Positions 6,708-50,414 of a stretch of 57,620 nt of DNA are shown here, piece by piece. Position 1 is the first letter of the stretch, and each line of letters opens with the position of its first letter. Where the stretch lies: the IMG/VR virus record IMGVR_UViG_3300028024_000011, positions 1-57,620 of that record; one strand, given 5' to 3'. The DNA comes from a virus. Taxonomy: Duplodnaviria > Caudoviricetes. The translations under genes and the position numbers were made by a program. A model generated the notes under the pieces. That model ran no database searches. It had not been told where the DNA came from and worked only from the letters and a program-made list of their open reading frames with translations.

Positions 6708-7819
6708 GCCGGCTCGCCCTTGAGACTCACTGTCACTGTTTCTTCGCCCCCCTGCATCGTTACCGCCAACGCCTCAACCTTGACGAGATATTGTACCCCA
6801 TCCATTTCGGCTAGCAGACTGTCGCCAAACGTCCAGTCCTTACCGTACACCGCGCCGGGTCCGTTGACCAGACTACCCGTCAGCACTGTCCGGGTCCGTT
6901 GACGCATAAGCTCGGCCTGAGCCTCGCCCAGGATCGCGGCATCCGTTGTAGCCGACGCCGCGTCTATCGTCGCCTCGCGGCGGCCGAATGGCGACGTCAC
7001 GAGCCGCGTTGCATCGACGGCTACCTGCACCTTGCGGCTCGGGCCTTGCCCCGGCCCGAGCCCATAGACGGCCGTCGCTGACGATCGATAGTCGGTTGTG
7101 ACCTCGGAAGCTCCGAGCGTACCGCGATCCGTCGAGATCGTCAGCGAGCCCGGCGTGCCTACGATGCTTCGATTTGTGCCGCGCTGACCGACATAGGTCC
7201 GGAATTCAAACCTCGATCCTGTCCAGACCAGATCAAAATACAGCGGGCGCGTACTGTCCGCTGTCCGCGCCGATTGCGCCAAATCCTGCAAGAGCGAAAA
7301 CAGGTTCTTTTGCGAGCCCTCCTTAGTGACCGATGCCGCCCCGGACACACTGGCGGCTACGTCGATATAGCCTGACCATGTCCGATCGCCGGCCGCGCTA
7401 CTGCCGAGATTTTCGGCTACGTACGCCTTCATCAGATCGTCAGCGGCGCCCGTCTTGAGTGAGCCGGCCGCGCCCGCTAGCGCCGTGATCACGCGCCGTT
7501 CTAGCAGCGTGGCGGCTGTGTAGGCTACCAACGTACGGTAACGGCCACCGGCCGCGCTGACGCCCTTCGTGGGAGCTTGTAGCAGCCATACCGTCTCGCC
7601 CTCGCGTTGCATCTCGCCACCGACCGGGCGCCGCATGATCTCGAAGCGCGCGTCTTCGATCAGGTAAGCATCCGGCAGACTGCCACGAGGTATCGTGATC
7701 GTGACCGATCCGACCGCGTTGGTTCCGAGCGCATACGTCAGTTTCGCGATGCGATTGCCCGACACGTCGGCCACGCGGTTGCCGAACGGATCGCTCAGCC
7801 ATATCTGGTAGTCTGTCAT
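6704..7819 (-). CDS. Siphovirus minor tail / baseplate hub-like protein (ReqiPepy6 Gp37-like)
   Basis: Position after Dit-like gene; ATAVYGLGPG, PFGRRE, YGKDWTFGD motifs. Confidence 0.7.
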   Translation of the reverse strand: MTDYQIWLSDPFGNRVADVSGNRIAKLTYALGTNAVGSVTITIPRGSLPDAYLIEDARFEIMRRPVGGEMQREGETVWLLQAPTKGVSAAGGRYRTLVAYTAATLLERRVITALAGAAGSLKTGAADDLMKAYVAENLGSSAAGDRTWSGYIDVAASVSGAASVTKEGSQKNLFSLLQDLAQSARTADSTRPLYFDLVWTGSRFEFRTYVGQRGTNRSIVGTPGSLTISTDRGTLGASEVTTDYRSSATAVYGLGPGQGPSRKVQVAVDATRLVTSPFGRREATIDAASATTDAAILGEAQAELMRQRTRTVLTGSLVNGPGAVYGKDWTFGDSLLAEMDGVQYLVKVEALAVTMQGGEETVTVSLKGEPA

Positions 7820-13400: not shown

Positions 13401-16400
13401 GATTTCCGATCTTCTGTAGCTGTCCCTGGAAGCCGCCGGCCGCCGGTGGTCCCTGTACGCCGCCGGCGGTCTGTACGGCTTGTGCCGCTTGCTGCTGTTG
13501 TTGCGCGAGTACGGCTTGCCGTCGCTGCTCGATCTCAGTGACGTATCTCTGCGTTTCCTCAAACGGTGGCACGCCTCCGTACTTCGCTACGTTGCCGGGC
13601 CCGGCGTTGTAGCTCGCGAGCGCCACGGACGGGTCTCCGTATTGCTGCATCGCCTGAGCTTGCAGGTTCGCGGCGTACGTCAGTGACGCGTGCGGGTCGG
13701 TCGGGTCTACGTTCGGGTGGTACTTCGGAATGAGTTGAGCAATGCCCGTAGCGCCAGATTTCGCGTTGTAGGCGTTCGGGTTACCGCTCGATTCCTCGCG
13801 GATCTGTTCCACGAACCGGACCGGATCAATGCCGGCCTTGACGGCGGCCTGGTACGCCTCCTTCTCCCAGTCGGCCGTGTAGCTCGCCGGGGTGGCAGAC
13901 GGGCCGGGTTTCTGTCCTGTCGCCGCTGACGGTGCGCCGGTTCGGTTTGACATCTGCGTCGCACCGGCCGGTGCCGAGCTTGTGCCACCGCCGAATATGT
14001 TGGGGAGCGTCGGGTGCCATCCGCCGGTCGCGTCGTCCCACGCGCCTTTTAGCATGTCGAGTAGCTTGTTGCCGAGCGCGGACTGTGCGTCTGTGACCGT
14101 GATGCCCGTGATGGACTTTGTAAACCCGTCCTGCATCCCCTTTGCGAATGCGTCCCACGCCTCTTTAGCGGTCACAGCCGCGCCGAGCGCCGCGCCGAGC
14201 GCCTTAGCGGTGTCCGCGCCGATCTTTGCCCAATCGACGCCGGCAGCACCATTGCCGGCGCCGGTGAGCATGTTGCCAAACATATCGCCGGTCGTTGTAC
14301 CCAGTCCGGCCCAGTCCACGGCTTTGATCTGTTCCGTAATCCACGTGTAGAACTTCGTGTCAAAATCTAGGATAGCCTCGAAGACGCCGGCCCAATCGAT
14401 CGCGGCCAGTTGCACGCCAATCGCCGTAGCCGCGGCTTCGGTCAATCCGACCACCTTAGCCCAGACGTCCGGCCACGGGATTTTCGCGACTTCAGCCCCG
14501 AGCCACGTAGCGAAGTCGACGGCCAGCGTGAGCAGATACGAACCGAGCGCGCTTGCCACCGTGACTGTCTGTTGCCACAGCGCGGCCCAGTCCACGAGCG
14601 CGATCTGTGCCCCGAGCCACGTAGCGAAGTCCACGGTTAGCCCGGCTACGTAGGTGCCGAGCGCGGTTGCCACCGTAACCGTTTTCGCCCACAGCGCCGC
14701 CCAATCGATCGCCGCGATTTGCGTACCGAGCCACGTAGCGAAGTCCACGGCGAGGCCGGCGAGGTACGTACCGAGCGCAGTAGCAACGGTAACCGTCTTC
14801 GTCCACACTCCGGCCCAATCGATCGCGGCCACCTGTGCGCCGAGCCACGTCACGAAGTCGACGGTTAGTCCGGCCACGTACGTGCCGAGCGCCACGGCAA
14901 CGTCTACGGCTTGCTGCCAGACCGATGCCCAATCGATCGCGGCAACTTGCTCGCCTAGCCAGCCGATCGCCAGCGTAGCAAACTCGGAGAACGCGGTACC
15001 GAGCCCGCTGATAGCCGTTTTGATGTCGCCCGAGAATAGCGCCTGAACGATCGGGGCGAGCTTACCCTGTACCGTCTGCCAGACCGTCAGTATGCTATTG
15101 ATCGCCGGTGGCAGATTTGTCTGTAGCCACGTGGCAAGCGTCTGAACGGCCGGTATCACGGTGCCAGTGATGAACGATGACACGGCCGTCGCTGCCGTCA
15201 AGAACATCGGCCAGCCGGTCTGTGCTACCCATTGGATCGCTACGCCGAGCCCGGTCCGGATCGCGGCGGCTACCGGCACGATGGCCGGCACCACTGTGGA
15301 CGACAGGAAATTGACGGCTACCGTCGCCGCGCTGAGCAGTGCCGGGAATCCAGTAGTCGCCAGCCATTGCAACGACTCGCCTAGCGCGGTTCGTAGCGCG
15401 GCAGCCAACGGCGGAATGGCCGGCAGTAGCGTACCCGTCCAGAACGCCGCCGCTTGCTGGACGATCGCCATGAGCGGCGGCCACGCGGTAGCCGCCAGCC
15501 ACGCTAGCGAGTCGCCCAGAACGCCACGGAATACCTCGCCCGTCTTCTGTGCTGCCGGCAGTAGTGTAGACTCGAATACGCTAGCTGTCTGCTGGACGAT
15601 CGAGACGAGTGGCGGAATCACGCTACTGGTAATAAACGTGATCTGCGTGGCGATGTTGTCGATAAACGCCTTACCGATCCGGACTGCGATCGGTTCGACG
15701 GTCTCGAATGCGCTCACCAGGACCGGCCAGCCGGTCTGTACGGCTGACACGATGCCCTGCACGCCAGTAATGATCAGTTCACCCGATCGGGTGATGATGC
15801 CGCCGAGCAGATCCCATTCGTTTGCGTAGTCCGCGATCGATAGCCCGAGCAGTTTGGCCACCATCTGCTCGCCGGCCACGGCCGCCCGGCCGGCTGCCGT
15901 CACGAACACCGGTAGCGCCTTCTGAGCTACGCTCAGGATCGAGGAACCAACGGTCATGATAGCCGGTATCGCGGCGGCCGCCTTATCAATGAATCGATCG
16001 AGCATGCCGGCGGCTGACTCGCCTAGCTTGTCAAGCCCAGGTATCGCGCGGTTGACCATGTCGGTCGCCGCGTCGGCTACTTTCTTCAAGCTCGGGAGCA
16101 AATGCTGACCGAACGTGATGCTAGCCGTCTCAATCGAGCCTTTGAGCTTTTCCATGCTGCCAGCAAGGTTGTTCAGCCGTGCATCAGCAACCGCGCTGGC
16201 GCCGCCGCTCGCCTTCATCGCGTCGGCCATGTTGTTGAACCCGGTAGCGCCATTGTTGGACATGATGGCCGCGGCCCGGATCGCATCGGTACCGAAGATG
16301 GTTTGTAGCGCGTTGAGTTTTTGCTCTTGCGTCAGATTGGCCGTTGCCTCTTGCAGGATTTGGGAGATATCCGCGAGCCCCTTAGCCTTGCCCTGTGCAT

Positions 16401-34172: not shown

Positions 34173-35006
34173 CTAGCTGTCTGTTCCCACGGCATCGGCC
34201 AGTACGTTGCCGTTCACATCGTGGCAGCGTTCGGCGTGACCATTTGGGTACGTACAGCGTGACGCCACCTGACACGGTCCTACGGCCGCGCGGATGGCCA
34301 GTGTGTCTCTGTAATCGTACTGCGCCTGAGTGGACAGTCTGTCCATGATTGTCCACTCGTGATAGATGGCTCGGGCGATCAGTGCCGTAGACTCCGATTC
34401 GCTGTGCATCACCTCAGCGAGCGGCCGTAGCTGTATCTGCGCGGCTGTGCGCTGTTTCGGCTGGCCTTCGTATGCCATGATCAGGAACGGATGCACGCGC
34501 CACGCCGGGTCGTCCTGGTGACCATCGGCGTATATGGGCGGATGTGGCACCCGGAAGTGATTACGGACGATGATGCCCAGTTCCTCGCGGGCTTCCCGAC
34601 GCATGCACATTTCAGCGTCTTCGCCGGGCTCGATCTTGCCGCCGATGAACACCCACCGGTACGGCGCGCTGGCGCCGTATTTGAGTGCTCCCGGTGGGCC
34701 ACTGTGGTTGCGCCATTCCATCAGCACGTACGGCTCAGTGATTGATAGCGCGGCCCGTTCTACCTGCAACAGTGTCGGGCCGTTCACGAGGATAGTGAAC
34801 ACGGCTGCGCCTTGCTCCGGCGAGATCAACCGGCGCGGACTGATCATCCGCAACCGTGTCACCGCGGAGTCTACGCGCTCGGCTGTCTCTGGTAAAAGCA
34901 GTTTCCGGACTCGTTCAAGCCCGAGATACATCACGACATCGTCAAGTGCTTGTGATGAGTCCCGGTACGCCTTCAGTAGGTCGCCGTCTACCCACTCGGC
35001 TGTCAT
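34173..35006 (-). CDS. Nudix hydrolase
   Basis: Nudix box GGKIEPGEDAEMCMRREAREELG. Confidence 0.85.
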   Translation of the reverse strand: MTAEWVDGDLLKAYRDSSQALDDVVMYLGLERVRKLLLPETAERVDSAVTRLRMISPRRLISPEQGAAVFTILVNGPTLLQVERAALSITEPYVLMEWRNHSGPPGALKYGASAPYRWVFIGGKIEPGEDAEMCMRREAREELGIIVRNHFRVPHPPIYADGHQDDPAWRVHPFLIMAYEGQPKQRTAAQIQLRPLAEVMHSESESTALIARAIYHEWTIMDRLSTQAQYDYRDTLAIRAAVGPCQVASRCTYPNGHAERCHDVNGNVLADAVGTDS

Positions 35007-35413
35007 AGTGTCTGCCCCCTGAAATCGATGCAGTGACCGCTGTGGCCGTCGCCCATGATGCACGATGCGTTGACGCGGCACGGTAGGCGCGTTTTGATCT
35101 GCTCGGCAGCCTCGAAGACGGGCGCGTACTCGGCCGCCACGTCGGCCGCGATCGTCTCCGTTTGCGCCATCATCACCCGATAGACGCCGGCGGCCCGGTG
35201 GATGCGATCCCAGACCCGCTGTGGCACTCCGTTCGCGGCCATTGGGATGCCCATCCCGTCAAGCTCGGCCAGCGCTTCGGCGCACTCGCGTAGCGTGCTG
35301 ATCGCGCGCTCCGGGTTGTCCCAATGGTCATCACACGCCGGGATCGCGGTTAGACCATTCGTTGTCTCGCGCCCATCGATCGGGCACACGCTCGTCTGCT
35401 GTAATCCTTGCAT
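35003..35413 (-). CDS. Hypothetical protein
   Basis: AGGGGG RBS; Cys/His motifs at both ends. Confidence 0.6.
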   Translation of the reverse strand: MQGLQQTSVCPIDGRETTNGLTAIPACDDHWDNPERAISTLRECAEALAELDGMGIPMAANGVPQRVWDRIHRAAGVYRVMMAQTETIAADVAAEYAPVFEAAEQIKTRLPCRVNASCIMGDGHSGHCIDFRGQTL

Positions 35414-39794: not shown

Positions 39795-40113
39795 GGCAGT
39801 GTCTTCGTCCGTTACAAGATGGCTGAGCATCGATCGCGCGGCCAGCGCTCGCCGGTTCGTTCGGTTGCAATGGCGCCGGCGTTGGCTCGCGACAGATCAC
39901 TAACACAAGCTCGGGGCGGATCTGCACCGGCTGAGCCGTGCCCGGACTCGCACAGTGGACGTATGCCTGATCTGGCGGTGTGAGCGGGCCAACGATGATT
40001 GGCAAGTGTTCGGATTCGTTCGCGCGGACCACCGCGGCCACCGTGCCAACCATGCCCATGAACGCGGCGGCTATGGCGCAAGCGATCGTGAGTTTTCGTG
40101 TCATGCGTGTCAT
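39787..40113 (-). CDS. Membrane-anchored/secreted hypothetical protein
   Basis: N-terminal signal/TM; GGAG RBS. Confidence 0.55.
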   Translation of the reverse strand: MTRMTRKLTIACAIAAAFMGMVGTVAAVVRANESEHLPIIVGPLTPPDQAYVHCASPGTAQPVQIRPELVLVICREPTPAPLQPNEPASAGRAIDAQPSCNGRRHCHD

Positions 40114-40661
40114 GTCTGACTCCGTTTCTTCGGTAGGATCCGGCCATCGCTCGGTGCCGGTGCTTTCGGGAAACCCTCGAAGGGTCGGTATCGTGCCAGG
40201 ATGGCGACGTACCGTTCTACAAATCCTTTCACGGTCTCGTCACGCTCGGCCCGTAGCGCCTCGATCTCGGCGTACAACACCGGGTCATCATGATAGAATT
40301 TGTTGGTATCGCTGTTACCGATCAGGTCGCCGCTTTCACTACGATACCGCTCGTGTCCGTCCTGTGTGACGACTTCCACAACCCGGTGACGCCGCGGTAG
40401 TTCGAGCTTACGCGCGCTCTCTTCCCTGACTGTGTTGTGGTACGCGCCTTCACGTACGCGGCTGTCCAACCACCACGGCAACGAGACGAGCGCGACCGGA
40501 TCGACAGCAAGCCGGCCGATCAAGCGCCGAAGCTCGGCCAGCGCCTTACGTCTGACGATCTTCTGACCTACCCTTGCCATAAACGAGCCGGACTCAGTGT
40601 CGAGATAGATGTCTATCCCGTTGAACTGTTCGACCTTCGTCCCGGCTAGGTAGGTGCGCAT
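40110..40661 (-). CDS. Hypothetical protein (183 aa)
   Basis: GAGG RBS immediately after periodic tract 3. Confidence 0.7.
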   Translation of the reverse strand: MRTYLAGTKVEQFNGIDIYLDTESGSFMARVGQKIVRRKALAELRRLIGRLAVDPVALVSLPWWLDSRVREGAYHNTVREESARKLELPRRHRVVEVVTQDGHERYRSESGDLIGNSDTNKFYHDDPVLYAEIEALRAERDETVKGFVERYVAILARYRPFEGFPKAPAPSDGRILPKKRSQT

Positions 40662-40676
40662 CGTCTCGTTACCTCT

Positions 40677-41050
40677 GTGTGGCTGCCCGGTTGCACGTTT
40701 GTGCGGTTGTCCCGCGAGTGACTATGTTGGACGGGTTGTACGTTTGTGATGGCGGATGGTTGACCGTTTGTCCGTTTGTCTGAATCGCCGTTGTGGCCGT
40801 GCACACGTCCGGGGATCTGATTTTGTCGGATGGTCGGCTGTTCGTACGATCGTTTGCTATGTCGGATGGCTGGCCGTACGATGATCGCGGCAGAACGGAT
40901 GTGCGTACGTTCGGTCGCGTTGACGGTGGTACGCCGGCATGTTCGATCGGATGTTATCGCGCTCGTTTGTGCGTGCGGTCGGCTCGGCCACGATGGTAGC
41001 ACGACAGCACGGGATGTGTCGTTCGCGTGTAGGTTTGGCACGTTCGGTCA
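40677..41050 (-). ncRNA. 4-nt periodic array, tract 3 (candidate guide RNA array)
   Basis: + strand in-phase tetramers: 9/9 GNNY at 40677-40712; G-first 16/18 at 40714-40785, 13/14 at 40828-40883, 22/24 at 40889-40984. Confidence 0.7.
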
Positions 41051-41070
41051 AGGGCTCGTCCTACAGCCCG

Positions 41071-41616
41071 CTAACTCGCCTGTTCGCCCTCCTGTGCGAC
41101 GGCTTCGGCGTTCGATCGATCGAGTGATACGCGCCGGCCAATCGCCGCGCCCTCGATCACAGCCGAGCTTACGGCCGCCGCGGCTTCGGCGGCAACCGCC
41201 GACTCGTCTATGGTCGGATCGAGCGTGACCAGTAGCGCAACCTGAGAGCGGTACGCGGCCGGGCCCTCGATCGAGAGGTACCGCTGTATCGACATGATCG
41301 TCTCGCGCTTGTGGATGTTGTCGGCGGCCATCATGCGCGACAGCCGGCTGACGTTGACACGGCCGCCGCGCCGATCCGCCGCGAACGAGCGCACACCGTC
41401 CTGCCGAGCCGTCTGTAGGTAGCGCTGTAGCTCGCCCTTGACGTGTGCTCGCTGGAGTGCGTCGCCGCTCGGCTCAATCCTGAGAGTACCGGCGGCTTGC
41501 TCGTTCATCAGCCGCGCCATCAGGTCATCCGGACTCAGGTACAGATCATCATCGATCTGTAGTGCATCGGCTATGGCGATCGGTTCGCCCGTCTCGACGT
41601 CGATGATTCGTAGCAT
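41071..41616 (-). CDS. Hypothetical protein embedded between periodic arrays
   Basis: AGGGGG RBS; helical, possible HTH at GRVNVSRLSRMM. Confidence 0.7.
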   Translation of the reverse strand: MLRIIDVETGEPIAIADALQIDDDLYLSPDDLMARLMNEQAAGTLRIEPSGDALQRAHVKGELQRYLQTARQDGVRSFAADRRGGRVNVSRLSRMMAADNIHKRETIMSIQRYLSIEGPAAYRSQVALLVTLDPTIDESAVAAEAAAAVSSAVIEGAAIGRRVSLDRSNAEAVAQEGEQAS

Positions 41617-41638
41617 ATATCCCCCTGGTGGTTTAGAT

Positions 41639-41662
41639 GCCCCGGCGATTGCTCGCCGGGGC
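41639..41662 (-). terminator. Hairpin with GCAA tetraloop at 3' end of tract 2b
   Basis: 10-bp perfect stem; loop reads GCAA (GNRA) on minus. Confidence 0.65.
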
Positions 41663-42000
41663 TTCGTTCTTTTGTTCGACCGCGCCCTCGGTAAGCCGCT
41701 CGGATGACTGCTCAGCGGCTAGAGTGGGTGATTGCCCGTCCGGTAGGGTGCTCGTGTGTGCGTTCACTCGCCGCGCCCGGCGATCGTCAGGGCCGGGACT
41801 CGGATACTGGCGGCTTTCTCGGTTCGTTTGCGCGCGATCATGATCGCATGTCTGAATGAACATCGGCCCGCGCGATCAGATAACGGTTCGTTCGGACGGA
41901 TGCGAGTCGGTATCGGGGGAAAGATCGATAGGTGCGTATGGCTGGCTGTTCGCCAGAATGATCGAGACGCGCCCGTCGTCATTGGCGCTACTCAGTTGTG
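41663..42000 (-). ncRNA. 4-nt periodic array, tract 2b
   Basis: G at 22/27 in-phase positions 41666-41770 (12 consecutive 41718-41762); further runs at 41842-41913 and 41932-41967. Confidence 0.7.
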
Positions 42001-42002
42001 GT

Positions 42003-42034
42003 GCCCGGCTGGCCGTATCAGGTACCAGCCGGGC
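42003..42034 (-). other. Hairpin separating tracts 2a and 2b
   Basis: GCCCGGCTGG-N12-CCAGCCGGGC. Confidence 0.6.
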
Positions 42035-42059
42035 TATGGCAATGTTGTGGGGTTCTGGG

Positions 42060-42379
42060 GTTCGTCGCTCGTGAGCCGGTACGCTCGTTCGTCCGGAAGA
42101 GTAGGCGCTTGTTCGCTAGCATGCACGTCGGCTTGTTCGCCTACCTGCAAGTACGATCGTTCAGTTACCTTATACGGCCGTCTGATCGTTCGTTCGCCCG
42201 TCTGGTGTCAGGGCCGATGATTCGCCCGTCCTGTCGATAGCACGGCTGTGCGGACGTACTAGAGTCTTCGAGGTTGCAAGGCTACGCTGTCGACCGTCCG
42301 GACGCTTGCACGTACGCTATCGCGTGTGCCGGATTGTTCGTGAGCCACGCGCGTTCGTCAGCGTGCATGCTCGGGTGAA
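42060..42379 (-). ncRNA. 4-nt periodic array, tract 2a
   Basis: 22/24 G-first tetramers at 42067-42162; at 42176-42347, 35/43 begin with G and 32/43 end in C/T in a single phase. Confidence 0.75.
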
Positions 42380-43420
42380 CTAGCCGGCGCCGTTGACTCG
42401 ACGGACGCTGCCCACCACACGGGCGCGCGGGTCAACCTCAGCCGCGCCCACCGGTAGCGCCGCGTAGACCGCTCGCTCGGGTGTTGGTTCGTTCGTCGGT
42501 CGGCTCGTGCTGGCGCTCGTTTGAACGCTCGCGGTGACGCTCGGCGCGGTCGGGTACGGCCAGACCTCTTTACCGTCCACCACGAGACTGTGACAGATCA
42601 CGAGTCCCCAGTTGCCACCCTTGCCCATGCCGGCCGCGCTGATGCCGGTCCGTTCGACCTGATCGAACAGGCGCACGAGGTATGACGTCGAGAAGTGCGA
42701 CAGCGGCACCGTCATATGCAGCGTGCTCACGACATCACAGATGGACTCGTGGATGATCTCGCCCACAGCCTGACCGCGGACGTTGGTCGGTCGACGGACG
42801 GACTTGCCGATCACGGTCTCCGGCGGAAACACGATCGGGCCAACGCCGACATGGGACCATGCCACGTCGGGCAGCGTGCGACGGACACCGCCACGATCGA
42901 TCGTAATGGTTGAGTCCATCTGATCAGCGCTTTTCATCAGCGCGACGCGAATCCATCCACCCCAGATCATCGGGCCGCCGGGCTCGATAAACCGCGTCTT
43001 GTCGCTCGGGTTGCGCATGCGCGCTTTCAGACGCGGAAAGAACGCGATGCCCTGCTCGCCGGGCTCCGTGATCGGCCCGAGCGTTGCCGTCACCCATTCC
43101 AGCGTGGCGACCACCGGCGCGTACTGCGCGTATGGCGCCACGTAGCGAGACTCTAGCTTCGCTTGCATGTCTCCGAGCGAGCTACGGCCGTTCGCCGTGA
43201 TCTGCCAGCCGGACTCGGCATTGCGCCGCGTGAGCTTGCCGTCACGGTCAAGCACGATGATCTGACGCTCAATCTGCGTACGGAGGCGCTTCGCGTCCGC
43301 TTCGTCGTCGGGCTGATGCAGCGCCGCGACATTCTCGACAACCTCCGTCGTCATCAGTTCGCCGGACTCGGCAACCGTCGTGATGATTGCCAGTTGAATC
43401 ACGTTATTGTTGATCGCCAC
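42380..43420 (-). CDS. Winged-helix + RAMP (Cas7-like) fusion protein
   Basis: N-term wHTH-like (..LDRDGKLTR..GWQITANGR); RAMP-like motif order ATLEWVTATLG / FPR / PMIWGGWIRVALMKSA / IHESI / G-rich loop GISAAGMGKGGNWGLV; GTG start, AGGGG RBS. Confidence 0.65.
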   Translation of the reverse strand: MAINNNVIQLAIITTVAESGELMTTEVVENVAALHQPDDEADAKRLRTQIERQIIVLDRDGKLTRRNAESGWQITANGRSSLGDMQAKLESRYVAPYAQYAPVVATLEWVTATLGPITEPGEQGIAFFPRLKARMRNPSDKTRFIEPGGPMIWGGWIRVALMKSADQMDSTITIDRGGVRRTLPDVAWSHVGVGPIVFPPETVIGKSVRRPTNVRGQAVGEIIHESICDVVSTLHMTVPLSHFSTSYLVRLFDQVERTGISAAGMGKGGNWGLVICHSLVVDGKEVWPYPTAPSVTASVQTSASTSRPTNEPTPERAVYAALPVGAAEVDPRARVVGSVRRVNGAG

Positions 43421-43447
43421 GTGTGTACCCCTGTCTTCGTGTGTGAT

Positions 43448-43488
43448 GCCCGTAGCCGCGGAAGGGTAGGCTACTCACGGCTACGGGC
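43448..43488 (-). other. Hairpin at 3' end of tract 1, before the RAMP RBS
   Basis: GCCCGTAGCCG...CGGCTACGGGC 11-bp stem. Confidence 0.6.
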
Positions 43489-43499
43489 TCCTGTGCAAT

Positions 43500-43740
43500 A
43501 TCGCCGGTCTGATCACTGGCCGTAGGCGGCCCCCTGCACCTAGTCTGTGAGCGGATCACCTGACGTACTCCCCGCGCGGTTGCGCGATCGTATGTGTAAC
43601 TGTATGGTCGGCTGCCGTGTCGTGTGAAAAGAGCGCTGGTATGTGATGTCGTGCGGTCGTTGGGCCGCTACTACGAGTGCTGGTCTGTACGTGTGTCGGG
43701 CTGTACGTTCGTGTTGCCGTGCGTACGTGCGTACGGCGGT
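43500..43740 (-). ncRNA. 4-nt periodic array, tract 1
   Basis: 12/14 G-first tetramers at 43574-43629; 15/16 at 43683-43746. Confidence 0.7.
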
Positions 43741-45215
43741 TAGCTACCTCGCCCCGATCGCGCCGGCCGTCGTCCGGACGCGCCGGGCTTCGGTACCGCG
43801 TTCACAGCCGCCGGCCGCGTCGCCGCCGGACGTAGGGTACGGGCCGCCTGACGCTTTGCCGTCAGATCGCGGGCCACGGCCGCCTGATCAACGACCACCG
43901 GCGACGCGTCAACGGTCCTGGTCTGCTCGCCGGCTTCGGTGTCTTCGTCGCCGGCTTCGGCCAGTTGCGCAAGCTCGGCCGCGTCGGCTGCCGCGTCCGC
44001 TTCCTCGCGATCGATTTCCTCTTGCCGCAAACGCTCGGCTACGTCGTCGTCTTCGTCGTCGTCTTCGTCGTCGGATGCCGCTGAGTCGTCCTCAGCGTCG
44101 TCTGGCGCGGCTTCGTCGTCCTCGGCGGCCTCCGGCTCGTCTTCGGCCGTCTCGGGCACCGTAACACGCTCCGGCTCGCCTTGCTCGGCCATGTACTCGG
44201 CCAGTCGCCCGAGATAGTCGTGAGCGGCCAGCACGTTCGCTTCGATCTCGCTGTACGGCAGTGGCGCCCCGGTGTCCGGGAACATCACGTCAGCCCAGAC
44301 GGTTTCAATCGTGACGGTCTGACGAAGCTCCGCGAGCCGCATAATGGCGTCAAGCACGGCCGCGCCGTTCGCCGGGCCGGTCCGATCGGATGGGCTGATG
44401 ATCAGGTCCGGCTGCACTGACGCGCTGGCGTCCTCGATCGGTGCCGCGCCGGTACACGCCGGGCATGTTTCAAGATCCATTACCCAATGACGGACGCACG
44501 ATGGGCAGTGCCACGCCATGACCGGGTAGTACGCTTCGCACTCTTCGGACGCACACTCCCAGTCGTCATTAGAGATGGGCCGCGTCTCTGGGATGACCTC
44601 ACCTTCGTACGTGCCACTCGGAGCTACGCGAGCGGCCGGCGCGGTACCGTTCGATCGTGGCCGCGCCACGTCGGCCGGGGCGATGGTGTCAATGTTGCCG
44701 GTACCGGCCTTGATTTCGCGGACGATCGCGGTCAACTCGGTTGCGCTGAATCCGTCCGCGATAGCCCGATCGAGCAGTTTATCCGCCTGATCGTCCGGCA
44801 GCGATGACACGGCCCGGTGATGCGTCCACGTCAGTTCTACCCGTCGACGCTCAGGCGGAAACTTCGCGGCCACGCTCACGATGTTGCGCAGTGAGCCCGG
44901 ATCGAGTCCGAACGCGTCGAGCGCTTGCGCGTACTTCTGGCCGTAGCGCTTTTCGCCGGCGTTGAGCAAGTCGCCTTGCCAGAACCGGGAGACCTCGCGC
45001 AGTTGACCGACTGTCTCGGTAACCTCGTTCCAGTCCTCGATAGAGAGTCGCGACGGGATGATCGCCGCGGTACGCGTGAACTGAATGCGCTTCAGCGTCA
45101 TGATAGGCGTGTCATCGCGGGCCGCGATAGCTGTGGTCGCCGGCGCTTCGTCCGCTGTCTCGGGTGCCACCGGCGCGCTGTCGTCGGCTGCCGTCTTGTT
45201 CGCTGACTTTGGCAT
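43740..45215 (-). CDS. LmbU-family-like DNA-binding protein with Zn finger and acidic tail
   Basis: FWQGDLL..GE.RYG.KY.QA, LRNIVSVA.KFP.ERRR.ELTW.HH.AV..L; C....C/CPSC/CPAC; start MPKSAN with GGAAGG RBS. Confidence 0.75.
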   Translation of the reverse strand: MPKSANKTAADDSAPVAPETADEAPATTAIAARDDTPIMTLKRIQFTRTAAIIPSRLSIEDWNEVTETVGQLREVSRFWQGDLLNAGEKRYGQKYAQALDAFGLDPGSLRNIVSVAAKFPPERRRVELTWTHHRAVSSLPDDQADKLLDRAIADGFSATELTAIVREIKAGTGNIDTIAPADVARPRSNGTAPAARVAPSGTYEGEVIPETRPISNDDWECASEECEAYYPVMAWHCPSCVRHWVMDLETCPACTGAAPIEDASASVQPDLIISPSDRTGPANGAAVLDAIMRLAELRQTVTIETVWADVMFPDTGAPLPYSEIEANVLAAHDYLGRLAEYMAEQGEPERVTVPETAEDEPEAAEDDEAAPDDAEDDSAASDDEDDDEDDDVAERLRQEEIDREEADAAADAAELAQLAEAGDEDTEAGEQTRTVDASPVVVDQAAVARDLTAKRQAARTLRPAATRPAAVNAVPKPGASGRRPARSGRGS

Positions 45216-45216
45216 G

Positions 45217-45834
45217 TTAGTACCTTCCGTGTTCGTTCGTGTGTGAAATGTCATCCTGAGATGACATTTCACCGCCGCGCATCGTGCCGAATTCTCGTTC
45301 GCTCAGTAGTGCTAACTCGGCTAGCGCGGTCATGGATCGGCATAGCCCATCCACATAGACGTTGTATTCGCTGTACCCGTCCTGACTGATATCCTCGCCC
45401 CGGCTTGCCCTCTCTTTCTGCTCCGCGAGCTTGCGCTGTATTGGGTGGCCGTGTAGGTGCTGCCACGCAGTGACCGCGCCACGACGGCGTAGCTGTCGGT
45501 TCTGACGGATGCGCCAATCAGCCGGGATGCTGCGCAGTGAGCTACGGCTATCCGTCCACCAGCCATAGGCTACTCGCGAGTCCGTCCAGACCGTGACATG
45601 CTCGGTGTCTCCGAGATGTTCCAGTCCGTCGAGAATCGCGTAGTACTCGGCCTGATTGTTCGTGCCCTCGGGCCAGCCGACATCGGGGCGGATGGGTAGC
45701 TCGCTGGCCCGGATCCATCCGCAACGCTCGGCCACAATCTCGCCGGACTCGACGCGGCACCACGCCCACGTGATGGCTTGCCGGGTCGGATTCCGCCCGA
45801 GCAAACCGCCATCCGTGTACAGCGCAATCGCCAC
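45217..45834 (-). CDS. RNase HI-like protein
   Basis: LYTDGG, TNNQAEY.AI..GL, VWTDS, N.YVD catalytic motif set. Confidence 0.85.
   Translation of the reverse strand: MAIALYTDGGLLGRNPTRQAITWAWCRVESGEIVAERCGWIRASELPIRPDVGWPEGTNNQAEYYAILDGLEHLGDTEHVTVWTDSRVAYGWWTDSRSSLRSIPADWRIRQNRQLRRRGAVTAWQHLHGHPIQRKLAEQKERASRGEDISQDGYSEYNVYVDGLCRSMTALAELALLSEREFGTMRGGEMSSQDDISHTNEHGRY
45243..45272. promoter_or_regulatory. Palindrome copy 10
   Basis: GTGAAATGTCATC-CTGA-GATGACATTTCAC, about 30 bp upstream of the LmbU-like start. Confidence 0.85.
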
Positions 45835-45940: not shown

Positions 45941-47038
45941 CTAATCGCGCAGATCCGGGCCATCCATGATGATCGGCCGTCCGCTCATGCGTCGGATGCG
46001 CCCAAACAAACGGTCTCCGAGATGATCCACCAGCCCAACCCGTAGCTCCGGATCCGCTGACGTCGGATCGCCGGCTGGCGGGTAGTTCGACGTGAACAAC
46101 GTGCGTAGCCCGAGCTTTTGCCCGAAGTTATGCCGGTGGTTGACGATCTGGTAGAACCGGTCCCCGGCGTAGTCGGTCGGCTTTTCCGCGCCCAGGTCAT
46201 CGAAGATCAGCCACGGCACATTCTTCAGCGTGTCGAGTATCTGATTTTCTGACGGATCGGCATCGGGCGGAAACCCGGATTTGAGCAGTTGCAGGAAATC
46301 CGGCAGCGTGCGGAAGATTACGGACTCCCCGCGTCGCGCAAGCTCGAATCCCACGCCGGCCGCTAGCGACGTTTTACCCCGGCCGGCCTTGCCACAGATC
46401 AGCGCGAATGGGTACTCAACCGTCATATCGAGCCATTCCGCGAGCTTGCGGGCGGCCCGGCGGTCGGGATGATCGCGCCACGAATACGACTCGTAATGTG
46501 ATGGCAGCCCGGATTCACGCAGCACGCGTGAGACCTTCCGCTGTCGGTAGTCAGCCCGGCCAACCGCTATCGCCGCGTCGTCTCGTGCCTTGCGTGCCCT
46601 GCCCTCACGACACGTGCAGTGCTCGCGCAGAACCTCGATTTCCTCCACGACACCGGCGTGCGCTTCGTCGTCGTATGTCCCGGTGGGTTTCGGTAGGTAG
46701 CGCGGCTGTCGACCACCGTAGCCCAGACACCAGCAATCTACCGGCCGCTTTTCGCGCAGTTCATCGCGGATCGCGGCTAGCTCGATCTGGCGCCGTAGCT
46801 CGGTAACCCGACCTTGAATGGCGACGCGCTGGCGACCGCTTGCCGTCGTCAACGACAACTCAGCCGCCGTGAGCGCGTCGTGCAGATCGTCGGTATCCGG
46901 GATCGTCTGAAGCCGTAGCGCTGACGTGTTCGTCGGCTGCTCGGCGTGCTCGCGAGCCGCGGCCAGCACTTTGGCTAGCTGATCGTTCGGCAACTTCAGA
47001 TCGTCCAGCCACGCTATCGCGCTAAGCGTCGTCGTCAT
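45941..47038 (-). CDS. DnaC/IstB-like ATPase (helicase loader)
   Basis: GKAGRGKT, LIFDDLGAEK, FTSN, Zn motif CWC..CTC. Confidence 0.88.
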   Translation of the reverse strand: MTTTLSAIAWLDDLKLPNDQLAKVLAAAREHAEQPTNTSALRLQTIPDTDDLHDALTAAELSLTTASGRQRVAIQGRVTELRRQIELAAIRDELREKRPVDCWCLGYGGRQPRYLPKPTGTYDDEAHAGVVEEIEVLREHCTCREGRARKARDDAAIAVGRADYRQRKVSRVLRESGLPSHYESYSWRDHPDRRAARKLAEWLDMTVEYPFALICGKAGRGKTSLAAGVGFELARRGESVIFRTLPDFLQLLKSGFPPDADPSENQILDTLKNVPWLIFDDLGAEKPTDYAGDRFYQIVNHRHNFGQKLGLRTLFTSNYPPAGDPTSADPELRVGLVDHLGDRLFGRIRRMSGRPIIMDGPDLRD

Positions 47039-48098: not shown

Positions 48099-48118
48099 TT
48101 GTCATCCTGAGATGACAA
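48099..48118. promoter_or_regulatory. Palindrome copy 11
   Basis: TTGTCATC-CTGA-GATGACAA overlapping the helicase stop. Confidence 0.8.
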
Positions 48119-50414
48119 AGAACCGCGCAACGTCGTCAATCTCGCCAGTGATTGGCGCGTCGGGCAGTGCCGACAGAATCGAGGCGCCGTAGCCGTTACT
48201 CCGTAGACGGCCGTCTAGGATGGCCATCACGGCGCGATCCGAACCTGAGCGGATACCGCGGCCGTATGCCTGTTTTAGCGCGATCGTCGCTTGTGGGATG
48301 CTCAGGAGACGGAAACTCGCACGCGGGCTGTACTTGCGGTCAAGCTCGGCGCACTGCGCGGCGAACACCGGATCAGACGGCGGTGTGAACGGTAGCCCGC
48401 TGATAACTACCAGACTTAGCGCCTCGCCTTGAATGTCGACGCCTTCCCAGAACGATTTTACGCCAAACAGGACGCTCGGCCGTTCGCGAAACCGGCGCAC
48501 TAGTTCGGTCTGTGGCGCCTCGCCTTGCCGTAGTACCTGAATGCCGACAGCCTCGAAGTCAGCCCGCGTCGCCTTGAGTACCGAGTCTAGGACCGTGTTC
48601 GACGTGAACAACGCGAACGCACGGCCACCGCTGATCGTGATCAGCCGCCGGTACTCAGCCGCCAACCGATCGAGGTACGCGGCCCATGCCGCCGGATCCT
48701 TCCGCGCTACCGTCGAGTTGAACGCTGCCGCGTCGAGCGGCACGTACGTCAGCGCGTTGTGTCGGTAGTCGAACGGGCTGCCGACGATCAGACCGGGCCG
48801 GCTCGGCAGATCGTAGTCGAGCCCAACCCGTTCGCGCCAGAATCGAAGATCCTGCCCACCCATGCTGTTTGACGTGGCGATCGTCGCGGACACGGCAATC
48901 ACGGTCAGCGGCAGCCGCGCCTGAGCGTTACCCTTGCGGTCGAATGGCCGATAGAAACTTGCCGTCCACAGCGACGAACGCAACGCCGGCGCCACGTTGA
49001 CCGGCGTTGTTTTGATCGTGGCGCGCTTGCCCGTCTTCGTCTCTTCCACGGCCACGTACCGCACAACGGACGTCGAGCGATCGGTTGCCCCGGATGCCGC
49101 GATCAGATCGCCCAGAAACGCGCTGGCGTAGTTGGCCAGTTTGTCCCACGACTCGCGGTCGGTGTCCTGCAAGCTCGCCGGCGCAAACGTGATCATGTCG
49201 GTTACGAGCGCGTCGAGCGCCAGCATGCTGTCTAGCATCACTTCGTACTCGTCACCTAACCGGGCCGCCGATTCGTTCATGCCGTCGAGTCGTAGAACGT
49301 AGTGAGCCAGCATGGCGTCAAACTCGTTCACCACGCGATCAGTACGCGCCTTCCAGTCCGCTATCAGTGTCGACGCGGTCACGCTCACCGGCTCGCGGCC
49401 GGCCTCGATCGCGTCGAGCAATTCCTGAGCTTGACGTGTCTCGACGTCACGGCTCGCGGCTCGGCGGATCAACGAGTCTACACGCTTGACGACGAACGCC
49501 AGCCGGCCCACCGTAACCTCGCGCGTTAGCGCGTTCAGGGCCTCGTCTTCGAGACGGTGGCACTCGTCAATCACGAGCGTTTCGATGCCGTCCGGCAGAA
49601 TCGACGCCATGTCGTCCGTATCGGCTCGGAGACTGATGTCGCGCATCAGCATAGCCAGATTCGTCACGATCAGATCGGCACCGGCCGCTCGCGCTTTGGC
49701 CTGTTCGGCGTAGCAGCGGTCATAGGCCGGGCACGTCTCGCCTAGACATTCGTCAGACGTCGCCGTGATCTCGGTTTTGATCGCCATTGGTAGCGCGATC
49801 GTAAGTTTCCCGGTATCGCCGTCGCGTGTCTCGTCTGTCCACGTCTGCACGGTTCGCCAGACGCCAGCGTCCTGCCGGTTCTCGAATGTCGGGTTCTCCT
49901 TGAACTGTTCGTACTTGTGCAGACACAGATAGTTCGCGCGGCCCTTCAGTAGCGCGTACGTAAAGCCGCCCGGGATCACGCCGGCCATGCTCAGGAACGG
50001 TATGTCCTTCGATAGCAACTGATCCATCAGCGCGAGCGTCGGCACGGCTACGGCCGTTTTGCGCTTCGAGGCTAGCGCGGCAGCAAGGTAGGCGAACGAC
50101 TTGCCAACGCCGGTACCGGCTTCCGCGGCAAAGTGCTTCCGATCGCGGATGGCTGCCTCGATCGCTAGCGCCAGACGGATCTGTGGCTCACGAGCTTCGT
50201 AGCCCGGGAATCGCTGAGCGATCGTACCGGACGGTCCGATGATTGCCAGCGTCTTCGAGTCCGCGAGCGGCGCCGGCCGCTGTGGGAACGCGTACGTGTT
50301 GATCGTTCGCCCGACACCGTTCAGGATCTCAGCGCGTCGCTTCGGAAGAATCCTGGTCTGTGCTTGCTCTACGCGCTGAGCGCTCGGCCGGCGCGGCATG
50401 ATGCGGTCTGCCAT
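48102..50414 (-). CDS. DinG/YoaA-family ATP-dependent helicase (Fe-S)
   Basis: Q motif YEAREPQ, EAGTGVGKS, KGRANYLC, CLG..CP.Y..CY, DECH, SAT, SFWEGVD, QAYGRGIRS, DGR. Confidence 0.92.
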   Translation of the reverse strand: MADRIMPRRPSAQRVEQAQTRILPKRRAEILNGVGRTINTYAFPQRPAPLADSKTLAIIGPSGTIAQRFPGYEAREPQIRLALAIEAAIRDRKHFAAEAGTGVGKSFAYLAAALASKRKTAVAVPTLALMDQLLSKDIPFLSMAGVIPGGFTYALLKGRANYLCLHKYEQFKENPTFENRQDAGVWRTVQTWTDETRDGDTGKLTIALPMAIKTEITATSDECLGETCPAYDRCYAEQAKARAAGADLIVTNLAMLMRDISLRADTDDMASILPDGIETLVIDECHRLEDEALNALTREVTVGRLAFVVKRVDSLIRRAASRDVETRQAQELLDAIEAGREPVSVTASTLIADWKARTDRVVNEFDAMLAHYVLRLDGMNESAARLGDEYEVMLDSMLALDALVTDMITFAPASLQDTDRESWDKLANYASAFLGDLIAASGATDRSTSVVRYVAVEETKTGKRATIKTTPVNVAPALRSSLWTASFYRPFDRKGNAQARLPLTVIAVSATIATSNSMGGQDLRFWRERVGLDYDLPSRPGLIVGSPFDYRHNALTYVPLDAAAFNSTVARKDPAAWAAYLDRLAAEYRRLITISGGRAFALFTSNTVLDSVLKATRADFEAVGIQVLRQGEAPQTELVRRFRERPSVLFGVKSFWEGVDIQGEALSLVVISGLPFTPPSDPVFAAQCAELDRKYSPRASFRLLSIPQATIALKQAYGRGIRSGSDRAVMAILDGRLRSNGYGASILSALPDAPITGEIDDVARFFVISG

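Follow-up and report, generated by a model that had tools for sequence, protein, structure and literature searches.

Genes and periodic tracts at the locus

The window, that is the whole stretch of phage DNA analysed here (57,620 nucleotides), carries a gene (42380..43420, GTG start) for a predicted winged-helix-RAMP fusion protein of 346 aa on its minus strand, to which all features below belong. It has two conserved neighbours: gene A upstream (43740..45272, 510 aa) and its partner gene B downstream (41071..41616, 181 aa, ATG start). An earlier note on this DNA, which proposed a solitary Cas7-like RAMP surrounded by four-nucleotide-periodic arrays, had overlooked the winged-helix fusion, the two conserved flanking genes and the GC hairpins at the tract ends. 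The module is placed in the replication region, where it adjoins a DnaC-like loader and RNase H, and 4.7 kb upstream there is a DinG-type helicase (PADLOC typeIV_DinG, E 1.3e-100), for which tblastn gave no match in the contig of a second phage, a relative in which an SSB is found nearby. No CRISPR array and no Cas5/6/8/10/11 or other cas gene was found; the earlier note had recognised no cas1/2/5/6/10 gene and no repeat-spacer array.

Periodicity was followed over all 57,620 bases with a phase HMM of nine states (GNNY forward, RNNC reverse and background). Period-4 DNA amounts to 1415 bases, found only at 40676-41126, 41665-42380, 42467-42543 and 43573-43743, all of it forward on the plus strand; the emissions were taken from one tract, which somewhat favours the in-tract percentages but not the localisation. 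With the same HMM, nine of ten sequences simulated from the window by a first-order Markov model were free of period-4 bases and the tenth had 21, and the 50-kb genome of phage SUSP1 gave no call. The claim that such tracts occur only around the RAMP gene is thus confirmed, and their extent, first put at ~1.3 kb, is now about 1.4 kb.

The tract upstream of the RAMP gene (43573..43743, C-R-N-N on the minus strand) begins at the gene A stop codon and has 13 and 28 units in its two in-phase runs, G-first on the plus strand in 36 of 41, with a Fourier period-4 power of 5.23 against 2.93 for the 99.9% null. It is separated from the ribosome-binding site and GTG of the RAMP gene by a GC-rich hairpin (43448..43488, 11-bp stem, 19-nt loop). 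Within the RAMP gene, a periodic stretch of 77 nt (42467..42543; 19 units, 17 G-first) falls in the part encoding the poorly conserved, disordered tail of the protein. Immediately 3' of the RAMP stop codon comes a tract (42035..42380) with runs of 8 and 42 units and part of a 50-unit run, where period-4 Fourier power reaches the window maximum (5.55). A second downstream tract (41665..42002; runs of 35, 3, 23, 4 and 9 units) is divided from it by a GC-rich hairpin at 42003..42034 (10-bp stem, 12-nt loop). A further GC-rich hairpin (41639..41662, 10 pairs, 4-nt loop) stands just 5' of the point where gene B has its ribosome-binding site and ATG, and scored terminator-like on the plus strand owing to the T-rich tract start that follows it there. 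The last tract (40676..41126), 3' of gene B, holds nine in-phase runs of at most 24 units; it shares 56 nt with the 3' end of gene B and, on its other side, stops 15 nt short of where gene 40110-40661 starts. The hairpins at 43448..43488 and 42003..42034 were read from the sequence and are present in both MFE and centroid folds; the three window hairpins have no common sequence core.

The periodicity of the four tracts first described therefore stands but their boundaries do not, as 41663-42000 and 42060-42379 form one near-continuous stretch split by the hairpin at 42003-42034. Not all of the periodic DNA is non-coding: the lowest-numbered tract reaches as far as 41126 and enters gene B at its 3' end, and the 77-nt stretch inside the RAMP gene had been missed.

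By autocorrelation, identity at lags 4, 8 and 12 is 0.33-0.41 in the four tracts as first delimited, compared to 0.27-0.29 in the whole window, and lag 5 gives no signal in the tracts (0.21-0.29). Against 500 dinucleotide-preserving shuffles per tract, the lag-4 signal has a z of 3.4 at 40677-41050 (lag 8, z 5.4), 4.1 at 41663-42000 and 4.6 at 42060-42379, each reached in 0/500 shuffles. At 43500-43740 the lag-4 signal is weak (z 1.7, 24/500 shuffles) since the periodic part begins only near 43573, while lag 12 has a z of 4.5 (0/500). In six other intergenic stretches of the window the lag-4 z ranges from -0.9 to 1.9, so that the predicted excess over shuffled and other intergenic DNA is seen in three tracts and is weak at lag 4 in the fourth. 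Furthermore, neighbouring fixed positions are four nucleotides apart in 335 of 351 cases and the codon-position GC pattern of the flanking genes is not found in the tracts. The earlier count at 42176-42347, 35 of 43 in-phase tetramers with G first, is exact, and C or T is last in 32 of the 43.

Predicted structure of the RAMP protein and its neighbours

The RAMP protein has no Pfam or PHROG match, and none of the 13 family members matches a Pfam or PADLOC Cas7 family at E <= 1. Its AF2 model, built from a 13-sequence alignment (pLDDT 73.8, pTM 0.56), is divided into a winged helix (residues 1-96), a Cas7-like RAMP domain (98-289) and a disordered tail (290-346, pLDDT about 30-38) that is missing from homologues P0009-P0011. 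With this model, all 35 Foldseek matches listed are CRISPR class 1 effector-complex or Cas7-11 chains (best E 8.1e-07). Residues 98-289 align with Cas7 backbone subunits at Z 10.5-12.1 over 150-183 residues; in VIA-align the model gives Z 12.1 with the Csm chain 6xn3_F (rmsd 4.1, 168 aligned) and Z 12.2 with the PadR-like 7wjp (91 aligned), the winged helix being PadR/MarR-like in the predicted structure. A glycine loop, whose residues G264, G266, G268, G269 and W271 do not vary across the 13 family members, lies in the model after helix 2 and ahead of the last strand of the RAMP domain, and the C-terminus carries a conserved VNGAG. Residues 98-289 are hence predicted to adopt a Cas7/Csm3-like RAMP fold, an RRM-type fold with a glycine loop, in line with the resemblance to RAMP/Cas7 that had been suggested from motif order.

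Gene A, which has a conserved N-terminal region and a CxxC zinc-ribbon-like segment, falls in no Pfam, PHROG or PADLOC family; at the equivalent position of the relative's locus, L002:4305-5528 is 28-30% identical to it (E 1e-31). In the ESM Atlas it gave leads only, all under the bar, to ParB-HTH-like and DUF3102 clusters. The gene B product, modelled by AF2 (pLDDT 79.8) as a small alpha/beta domain with two long helices after it, has no Foldseek match in the PDB at E <= 0.001 and is 55% identical to L002:7530-8045 (E 6e-54). Gene B and the RAMP gene co-occur, and four of the 13 members of the gene B family are on contigs of the same size as those of RAMP homologues (13683, 3369, 51957 and 10799).

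The C-R-N-N frame in two phages

The contig of the second phage (G001) encodes a RAMP homologue 42-47% identical to that of the window, in the same gene order, and has four tracts with the same relative orientation; period-4 DNA covers 1580 of its 63,656 bases and occurs nowhere else. C is found at 95% of its 354 units; one single-phase run has C in 48 of its 50 units and another in all 51. The NN content of the two phages has nothing in common beyond shuffled controls, and among 29 window proteins tested by tblastn six match the second contig, three of them being gene A, the RAMP protein and gene B. Given this near-perfect frame, unrelated NN and divergent genomes, the frame is therefore kept by selection and the NN bases are free. 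The period-4 feature is real and conserved, and the prediction that flanks of homologues would be periodic is true of the one locus fetched, with the association between tracts and gene drawn from two loci in syntenic relatives.

In the window tracts, the unit reads C-R-N-N on the gene strand, with C at 82%, R at 77% and all 16 NN dinucleotides present; NN is near uniform and the mutual information between positions is low, which argues against a decayed microsatellite. A compositional accident or decayed tetranucleotide repeat without function, which has in its favour the general frequency of simple repeats and nothing more, is extremely improbable. Simple tandem repeats made up all 118 loci found when viral contigs were scanned for (CNNN)x23. 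Against this reading, the commonest unit accounts for only 20 of 354, the signal is absent from shuffles, simulations and the six control intergenic regions, and the frame is kept beside the same gene in a phage with 28-55% identical proteins.

The pattern is also strand-polar, with C at 82-95% on one strand versus G at 49-53% at the partner position, and in both phages it faces the same way with respect to the genes, which fits a single-stranded reading. This polarity, together with the fact that a 4-bp period does not stay on one face of B-DNA, makes it quite improbable that the tracts are a DNA-level array bound by the RAMP winged helix or by a ParB-like gene A for replication, partition or packaging, even though the module sits in the replication region, the fusion protein has a predicted PadR/MarR-like winged helix and the relative's hairpins share a palindromic core of operator type.

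Both phages display the same order of stop codon, tract, GC hairpin, ribosome-binding site and next gene. The sense tract RNA is U-poor (11-15%) and its predicted folding is weaker than that of the antisense in each of the 8 tracts (-0.20 to -0.33 versus -0.37 to -0.46 kcal/mol per nt). Rho-loading RNA is likewise C-rich, G-poorer and weakly structured. The tracts could be cis-acting mRNA elements, that is intercistronic leaders or trailers bound by the RAMP or another protein and affecting translation, termination or transcript stability, since they fill every gap from stop codon to hairpin just before the next ribosome-binding site. We consider this improbable, as regulation needs neither 1.4-1.6 kb nor a strict four-nucleotide frame across 50 units, and a Cas7-like filament former would be an odd autoregulator.

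The next question is whether the NN bases carry information. The earlier note had proposed to concatenate them with gaps in order to find targets; strings of 10 units with skips of 0-3 nt, searched within and between the two phage genomes, matched no better than shuffled units. No conserved internal punctuation was found in the tracts either. These results, the great length of the tracts, the lack of guide-sized units and the complete divergence of NN between the two phages, as expected of free positions, would all suit an RNA-scaffolded RAMP filament in which NN are unconstrained spacers and the role is structural, sequestering, anti-defence or RNA-protecting. Such a filament is nevertheless rather unlikely: NN has 45-52% G+C in genomes of 62-63% G+C (GC3 near 0.7-0.8), which neutral drift alone would not be expected to give, the target search spanned just two phage genomes, and VIPR, the only known system of such architecture, codes with its free bases (10.64898/2026.04.26.720920).

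A candidate RAMP-RNA module and its relation to known systems

We propose, with moderate confidence, that the locus of this soil phage combines a RAMP with repeat RNAs in a module of the VIPR kind, with a register of four nucleotides. The intergenic tracts would be co-transcribed with the operon on the minus strand, giving C/A-rich, weakly structured (C-R-N-N)n RNAs with a GC hairpin at each 3' end. On these the winged-helix-RAMP protein would polymerise at four nucleotides per protomer, its RRM face, glycine loop and invariant tryptophan gripping the fixed C and the next purine and leaving the two NN bases of each unit exposed. The filament would most likely read, via NN, nucleic acid belonging to the host or to a rival element, and the winged helix and gene B may be accessory DNA-contacting or structural parts. 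Transcription and its strand, binding of RNA by the protein, the four-nucleotide step, and any guide function or silencing of rivals are what we infer. The earlier interpretation, which was of this type, is thus partly supported: every anatomical prediction that it had named as a test was borne out, while the NN target search did not exceed its shuffled controls.

The model shares an RRM core and glycine loop with Cas7 backbones (Csm3, Cmr4, type VII Cas7, type IV Csf2 and Cascade Cas7), which polymerise on RNA at a fixed step; theirs is a 6-nt step with a contiguous guide, whereas the period here is four nucleotides with two free bases. Among the fold matches are the Csf2 chains 8rfj_A and 8rc3_A of type IV-A CRISPR (Z 10.7-10.9), and a DinG-type helicase lies near the module as in those systems, but no Csf1, Csf3, Cas6 or array is present. 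Helicases of the DinG family also belong to the ordinary replication genes of phages. In TRAP (GAG/UAG repeats) and the TMV coat protein (assembly origin with G at every third base), the period of fixed bases is the footprint of one subunit in a ring or helix; their folds are unrelated to that predicted here, and their periods of 3 or 5-6 nt extend over tens of nucleotides rather than kilobase-scale tracts.

The closest comparison is with VIPR, which consists of the Vipr RAMP, vrRNA and vap, with Escherichia phage SUSP1 as type II reference; the statements on it here follow two reports (10.64898/2026.04.26.720920, 10.64898/2026.04.26.720927). The earlier description of a RAMP paired with 5-nt GGY/NN repeats and a gapped DNA target agrees with the first of these. 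As in VIPR, a lone phage-encoded RAMP gene without CRISPR array or other cas genes lies between long intergenic stretches built from a very short tandem unit, in which fixed bases alternate with two free ones. The two also have in common a structured element that closes the repeat tract at its 3' end, a small neighbour gene that is conserved, and a tryptophan-bearing glycine loop. VIPR offers a precedent for the proposed mechanism, with one protomer per repeat, fixed bases locked and NN exposed (10.64898/2026.04.26.720920, 10.64898/2026.04.26.720927), and the invariance of W271 parallels the G-loop tryptophan that stacks on a fixed base in SUSP1 Vipr (10.64898/2026.04.26.720927, section 5).

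The two also differ. Published VIPR units are of 5 nt (GGY-NN, with variants including NNNGG, YNNNG, NNNNG and GAC/NN; 10.64898/2026.04.26.720920), and no 4-nt form was found in the VIPR literature examined; the fixed dinucleotide here is pyrimidine-then-purine (C-R) and not a shortened GGY. VIPR guide RNAs are roughly 100 nt long with 9-16 repeats and conserved 5' and 3' flanks (10.64898/2026.04.26.720920), unlike the continuous tracts of 170-720 nt seen here, with runs of up to 51 units, a length that the earlier note had overlooked; the SUSP1 locus itself was checked. At 346 aa the protein is longer than Vipr (195 aa), with a winged helix at its N-terminus and a tail that is disordered in the model; the family profile has no detectable similarity to Vipr in a comparison on sequence (hhalign probability 0.2% with SUSP1 Vipr), and accessory gene B has no known fold. 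If the proposed explanation is true, this module would be a four-base counterpart of the recently described five-base VIPR RNA-guided phage systems.

Period-4 tracts around the candidate RAMP gene

On base-identity autocorrelation, the four tracts that an earlier note had placed around the candidate RAMP gene (42380-43420, minus strand) show an identity of 0.33-0.41 at lags 4, 8 and 12, compared to 0.27-0.29 for the whole window, with no rise at lag 5. Each tract was set against 500 dinucleotide-preserving shuffles of its own sequence. The lag-4 signal of the first three tracts (z 3.4-4.6) was reached by 0/500 shuffles, which upholds for them the expectation of a signal beyond shuffled DNA; the fourth as first delimited (43500-43740) is weak at lag 4 (z 1.7, 24/500 shuffles) because its first 70 bases are non-periodic, but it is strong at lag 12 (z 4.5). 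As controls, six intergenic stretches from elsewhere in this phage gave lag-4 z values of only -0.9 to 1.9. Moreover, the codon-position G+C pattern present in the neighbouring genes is absent from the tracts, and a recount of G-first tetramers at 42176-42347 returned exactly the 35 of 43 reported before.

A nine-state phase HMM, which follows the phase, permits slips, reads both orientations and takes its emissions from one tract, was run over the whole window. Its sole calls are four stretches with GNNY on the plus strand, at 40676-41126, 41665-42380, 42467-42543 and 43573-43743, so that the tracts are indeed confined to the surroundings of the RAMP gene (40676-43743) as first noticed. Among ten first-order Markov simulations of the window, nine had 0 called bases and one had 21, and nothing was called on 50 kb of phage SUSP1, which carries true 5-nt arrays of VIPR, the phage systems of a RAMP and a 5-nt repeat RNA (vrRNA). 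The sequence under a Fourier period-4 peak at 5981-6140 does not form a tract of this kind and looks normal, probably coding.

Read on the coding (minus) strand, the repeat unit is C-R-N-N. Among 342 window units, 82% have C at position 1 and 77% have A or G at position 2, percentages that the single-tract HMM emissions inflate somewhat, although this does not explain the absence of calls elsewhere. Positions 3 and 4 are near uniform and all 16 dinucleotides are present. Given that the commonest whole unit is rare and the mutual information between unit positions is low, the tracts are not a decayed microsatellite.

The tracts start at the stop codon of the upstream gene or slightly before it, and three of the four window tracts terminate in a perfect GC-rich hairpin shortly ahead of the next gene's ribosome-binding site (43448-43488, 42003-42034 and 41639-41662 in minus-strand reading), the hairpins having no common sequence core. 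As an alternative to a trans-acting RNA, tracts placed in this manner could be a leader or trailer of the operon that acts in cis. Rfam gave 0 matches and so revealed neither a hammerhead nor any other RNA of known family between the tracts, and promoter and terminator scans gave a signal no higher than in shuffles. The sense-strand RNA, as predicted from the sequence, is C/A-rich and U-poor (11-15% U), and its predicted folding is weaker than that of the antisense in 8/8 tracts of the two phages described here; compared with composition-matched shuffles there is little difference for either strand.

A second locus with the same frame

Pattern scans of three public collections (viral, genome and metagenome contigs) gave one related locus, on the 63,656-base IMG/VR phage contig L002 (G001 in the scans), whose RAMP homologue is 42-47% identical to the window protein. 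Protein-pattern scans found zero further RAMP loci in genome contigs or metagenome contigs, megablast and tblastn against 50,697 phage records gave no match to the locus, and a pattern scan for gene B, the gene downstream of the RAMP gene (41071-41616, minus strand), re-found the same contig and nothing else. A (CNNN)x23 scan of viral contigs was uninformative: it gave at least 118 loci, simple tandem repeats throughout (best unit entropy 3.28 bits), and G001 was absent among the matches listed.

The HMM run on the whole of G001 calls four stretches, 1580 bases in total, all within 5 kb around the RAMP homologue. They read C-R-N-N on the coding strand of the homologue, with the same orientation relative to the gene as in the window, and the pattern is cleaner, with C in 95% of 354 units; the periodic flanks predicted for homologues are therefore present at the one homologous locus. 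A single-phase run of 50 units has C in 48 and R in 42, and a run of 51 units has C in 51. The fixed positions are spaced by 4 nt in 335/351 cases in the window and 381/396 in G001, most exceptions being a +1 slip. In-phase runs extend over 2-51 units in the window and 4-56 units in G001 with no preferred length. Together, the G001 tracts, the simulations and the comparison with shuffles and control intergenic stretches exclude a chance origin. An array acting at the DNA level is another alternative, against which stand the strand polarity of the pattern and the orientation of the tracts relative to the genes, unchanged in both phages.

Both phages share the order gene A, tract, hairpin, RAMP, tract, hairpin, gene B, tract, gene A being the upstream neighbour (43740-45272, minus strand); the association of tracts and RAMP gene is thus drawn from two loci that are syntenic in the module. 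When 29 window proteins from 33 kb onward were compared with G001 by tblastn, 6 alone had matches. Furthermore, the NN content of the window and G001 tracts shows no sharing beyond shuffled controls, and no NN strings are in common. A 4-nt frame has thus persisted next to this gene even as its free positions became fully randomised, and no other observation speaks as strongly for a frame that is functional and belongs to the module.

Within the tracts, no k-mer or unit pair that could serve as internal punctuation is prominent in both phages. CATTC is enriched in the G001 tracts with irregular spacing and is close to absent from those of the window. Two +1 phase slips of L002 (7204-7208 and 7257-7261) have the same context, CTAAC, and bracket a 13-unit run, which is the sole hint of guide-sized units and is seen nowhere else. 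Five L002 hairpins (5734-5770, 7468-7505, 8507-8543, 10222-10242 and 10655-10680) have a common palindromic core (GTCATT, 4-5 nt, AATGAC); their outer GC stems vary in sequence yet remain complementary, and three of the five close a tract just ahead of the ribosome-binding site of the next gene. L002 also has a 66-aa open frame (5777-5977, plus strand) with coding-like GC3 and no Pfam match, located after the upstream hairpin and before the RAMP gene.

The predicted RAMP protein and its gene neighbourhood

The product of the RAMP gene has 346 residues, and neither this protein nor those of gene A and gene B gave a match in Pfam, PHROG or PADLOC. The family is small, as a word-index search gave 5 relatives besides the window protein and phmmer gave 8 among 1.84 billion cluster representatives. 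In an AlphaFold2 model computed from a shallow alignment of 13 sequences (mean pLDDT 73.8), residues 1-96 form a predicted winged helix of the PadR/MarR type (7wjp, Z 12.2, rmsd 3.4, 91 residues aligned). The predicted fold of residues 98-289 matches Cas7 backbone subunits over almost the whole chain length, the closest being 6xn3_F of the Lactococcus Csm complex (Z 12.1, rmsd 4.1, 168 aligned), followed by type VII Cas7, type IV-A Csf2, Cmr and Cas7-11 (Z 10.5-11.9). Among the Foldseek matches listed, 35/35 are class 1 CRISPR effector-complex or Cas7-11 chains (best E 8.1e-07). The predicted secondary-structure order is that of an RRM, with a glycine-rich loop, GMGKGGNWG, between helix 2 and the last strand, of which four glycines and the tryptophan are invariant in 13/13 sequences.

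At the profile level, 0/13 family members match the curated Pfam RAMP/Cas7 profiles at E <= 1, and the Pfam matches of the family are to weak winged-helix families alone (best E 0.019). For this reason the RAMP assignment rests on the predicted fold, by which the product is, from a shallow alignment, a predicted Cas7-like RAMP, in line with the RRM/RAMP fold proposed from motif order. Residues 290-346 make up a disordered tail whose last residues, VNGAG, are conserved. The stretch at 42467-42543, 19 units long, lies within the part of the gene that encodes this disordered, poorly conserved tail. Since the shorter family members P0009-P0011 are missing the tail, it may have arisen through read-through into a former tract.

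Between the phages, gene A has 28-30% identity (E 1e-31, window vs L002). In both (L002 4305-5528), its N-terminal region is conserved and, together with a zinc-ribbon-like segment (CxxC...CxxC), precedes acidic sequence of low complexity, and the ESM Atlas gave sub-threshold leads alone, to ParB-HTH-like, DUF3102 and DUF6192 phage proteins. Gene B is better conserved (55% identity, E 6e-54) and its family comprises 13 proteins. Four members are found on contigs equal in size (13683, 3369, 51957 and 10799) to those of four of the five word-index RAMP relatives, and these matching sizes point to a linkage with the RAMP gene in further genomes. Its model (pLDDT 79.8) has a small alpha/beta domain and then two long helices, with no solved fold at E <= 0.001 in Foldseek PDB and no usable match in the ESM Atlas. 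Gene B co-occurs with the RAMP gene, and a predicted winged helix is fused to the RAMP protein itself.

The window comprises an entire IMG/VR virus record of 57,620 bases with a G+C of 63%, which that database lists as linear and estimates to be 66% complete. Its sequence is identical, with zero variants, in contigs of the probable source soil metagenome, the one public run in which it was found. Its products include a tape-measure protein, major head protein, portal, terminase and endolysin, and the minus strand carries nearly all of its genes. The RAMP module lies in the early/replication part, where the minus-strand order is a DinG-type helicase (48102-50414), a DnaC/IstB-like loader (45941-47038), an RNase H-like gene (45217-45834), gene A, the candidate RAMP gene, gene B and gene 40110-40661.

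No CRISPR array was found in the window, as none of the 9 rows of Tandem Repeats Finder is a repeat-spacer array and none falls in 40.6-43.8 kb, and no Cas5, Cas6, Cas8/10, Cas11 or Cas1-2 was found among the 44 window proteins (PADLOC, E <= 1e-5 or 1); both observations agree with the reading made from the sequence alone. PADLOC matched two of these proteins and no others. The first is the 770-aa helicase at 48102-50414, 4.7 kb upstream of the RAMP gene, which matches nearly the whole profile of the CRISPR type IV-A associated typeIV_DinG (E 1.3e-100) as well as Pfam Helicase_C_2 and DEAD; tblastn gave it no match in G001, and it may be no more than a replication helicase. The second is a 302-aa protein (34173-35081, minus strand) with a match to the candidate-defence model PDC-S07 (E 2.3e-10) and to a NUDIX/MutT-like PHROG (E 5.2e-09). 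Elsewhere, tandem repeats of 114 nt (14495-14961, ~3.5 copies, 74-78% matches) lie within the gene of the 2274-aa tape-measure protein.

A candidate 4-nt code and its comparison with VIPR and CRISPR

VIPR is known from 2026 preprints alone (10.64898/2026.04.26.720920, 10.64898/2026.04.26.720927, 10.64898/2026.10.15.759431). According to their available text, it consists of a ~195-aa RAMP, an accessory gene and vrRNAs made of 9-16 pentanucleotide repeats (GGY fixed, NN free) and then a structured tail (10.64898/2026.04.26.720920). The RAMP filament reads this RNA with one repeat per protomer and the fixed bases locked (10.64898/2026.04.26.720920, 10.64898/2026.04.26.720927), the G-loop tryptophan of Vipr stacking on one fixed base (10.64898/2026.04.26.720927). 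The two free bases per repeat pair with DNA with every third base skipped, which makes a gapped DNA code (10.64898/2026.04.26.720920), as the earlier note had described. The seven published types and the variants NNNGG, YNNNG and NNNNG are all pentanucleotide, and the RAMPs have no mutual sequence similarity (10.64898/2026.04.26.720920).

For the window locus, the operon transcript would supply a (C-R-N-N)n RNA on which the RAMP domain would polymerise. As the favoured mechanism, we consider it somewhat more probable than not that such operon-derived RNA is coated by the RAMP with one protomer per four nucleotides. That the NN bases form a code for target recognition is a more doubtful proposal, held lower because the tracts are very long, guide-sized punctuation is absent and no targets were found in two phage genomes. 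Indeed, concatenating the NN bases, as had been suggested, was unproductive there: strings of 10 NN units with skips of 0-3 nt, searched on both strands of the window and G001, self and cross, gave for real and shuffled guides the same maxima (16-17/20) and similar counts at >=16. As an alternative on this point, the filament may have no role in guidance. Equally tentative is the fuller reading of a second, independent noncontiguous RNA code in four-nt steps. The winged-helix-fused Cas7-like protein would clamp the invariant C and the purine and show two programmable bases per subunit, with a gap geometry unlike the 5-nt/skip-1 rule of VIPR. The guide tracts would be of kilobase scale rather than 100 nt, and the filament would be directed to the DNA or RNA of rival elements.

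The locus would thereby present a VIPR-like logic at another step size. If this is true, the step per protomer would be a tunable, evolvable parameter of RAMP filaments (6, 5, 4), repeat-coded guidance would have arisen or diversified more than once in phages, and a second code could be set against VIPR and CRISPR for the evolution of RNA guidance. It would also add one more compact system to the candidates for programmable recognition.

In 376 million intergenic regions, a language-model survey recorded periods of 60-79, 18, 5, 10, 8 and 7 nt, along with non-canonical 5-mers, GAC/NN among them (10.64898/2026.10.21.760802). The available parts of its text make no mention of a 4-nt period, and no 4-nt VIPR form was found in the literature searched, including the available parts of the VIPR preprints' main texts. 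The 4-nt class seems to have escaped the survey, likely because of the rarity seen in the phmmer and word-index searches.

The window locus resembles VIPR in several respects: a lone phage RAMP occurs with no CRISPR-type array or further cas genes, its gene is flanked by tracts of short period in which each unit leaves two bases free, a structured element caps the 3' end, and a small partner gene is conserved. In contrast to the 5-nt unit of VIPR, its period is 4 nt with no lag-5 signal, and instead of discrete guides of 9-16 repeats with a conserved structured 3' tail it has runs of 2-51 units and hairpins without a common core. The VIPR locus of SUSP1 (KT454805.2, 27.5-29.5 kb), whose 195-aa protein has exactly the sequence of PDB chain 36pp_D ('SUSP1 Vipr protein'), displays discrete YNNGG guides with conserved flanks. 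The fixed motif of the window locus is different, its tracts are far longer, and it has a fused DNA-binding-type domain and a new partner protein. Furthermore, no sequence relation of its RAMP family to Vipr could be detected: when the 13-sequence profile was aligned with the SUSP1 protein, hhalign gave a probability of 0.2% (E 0.38), in a superfamily whose members are generally without sequence similarity. Since the 5-nt unit and the discrete 9-16-repeat guides are absent and the profile comparison does not place the protein in the Vipr clade, the locus is set beside VIPR and, judged on its sequence, is filed as VIPR-like in outline, a variant rather than a member.
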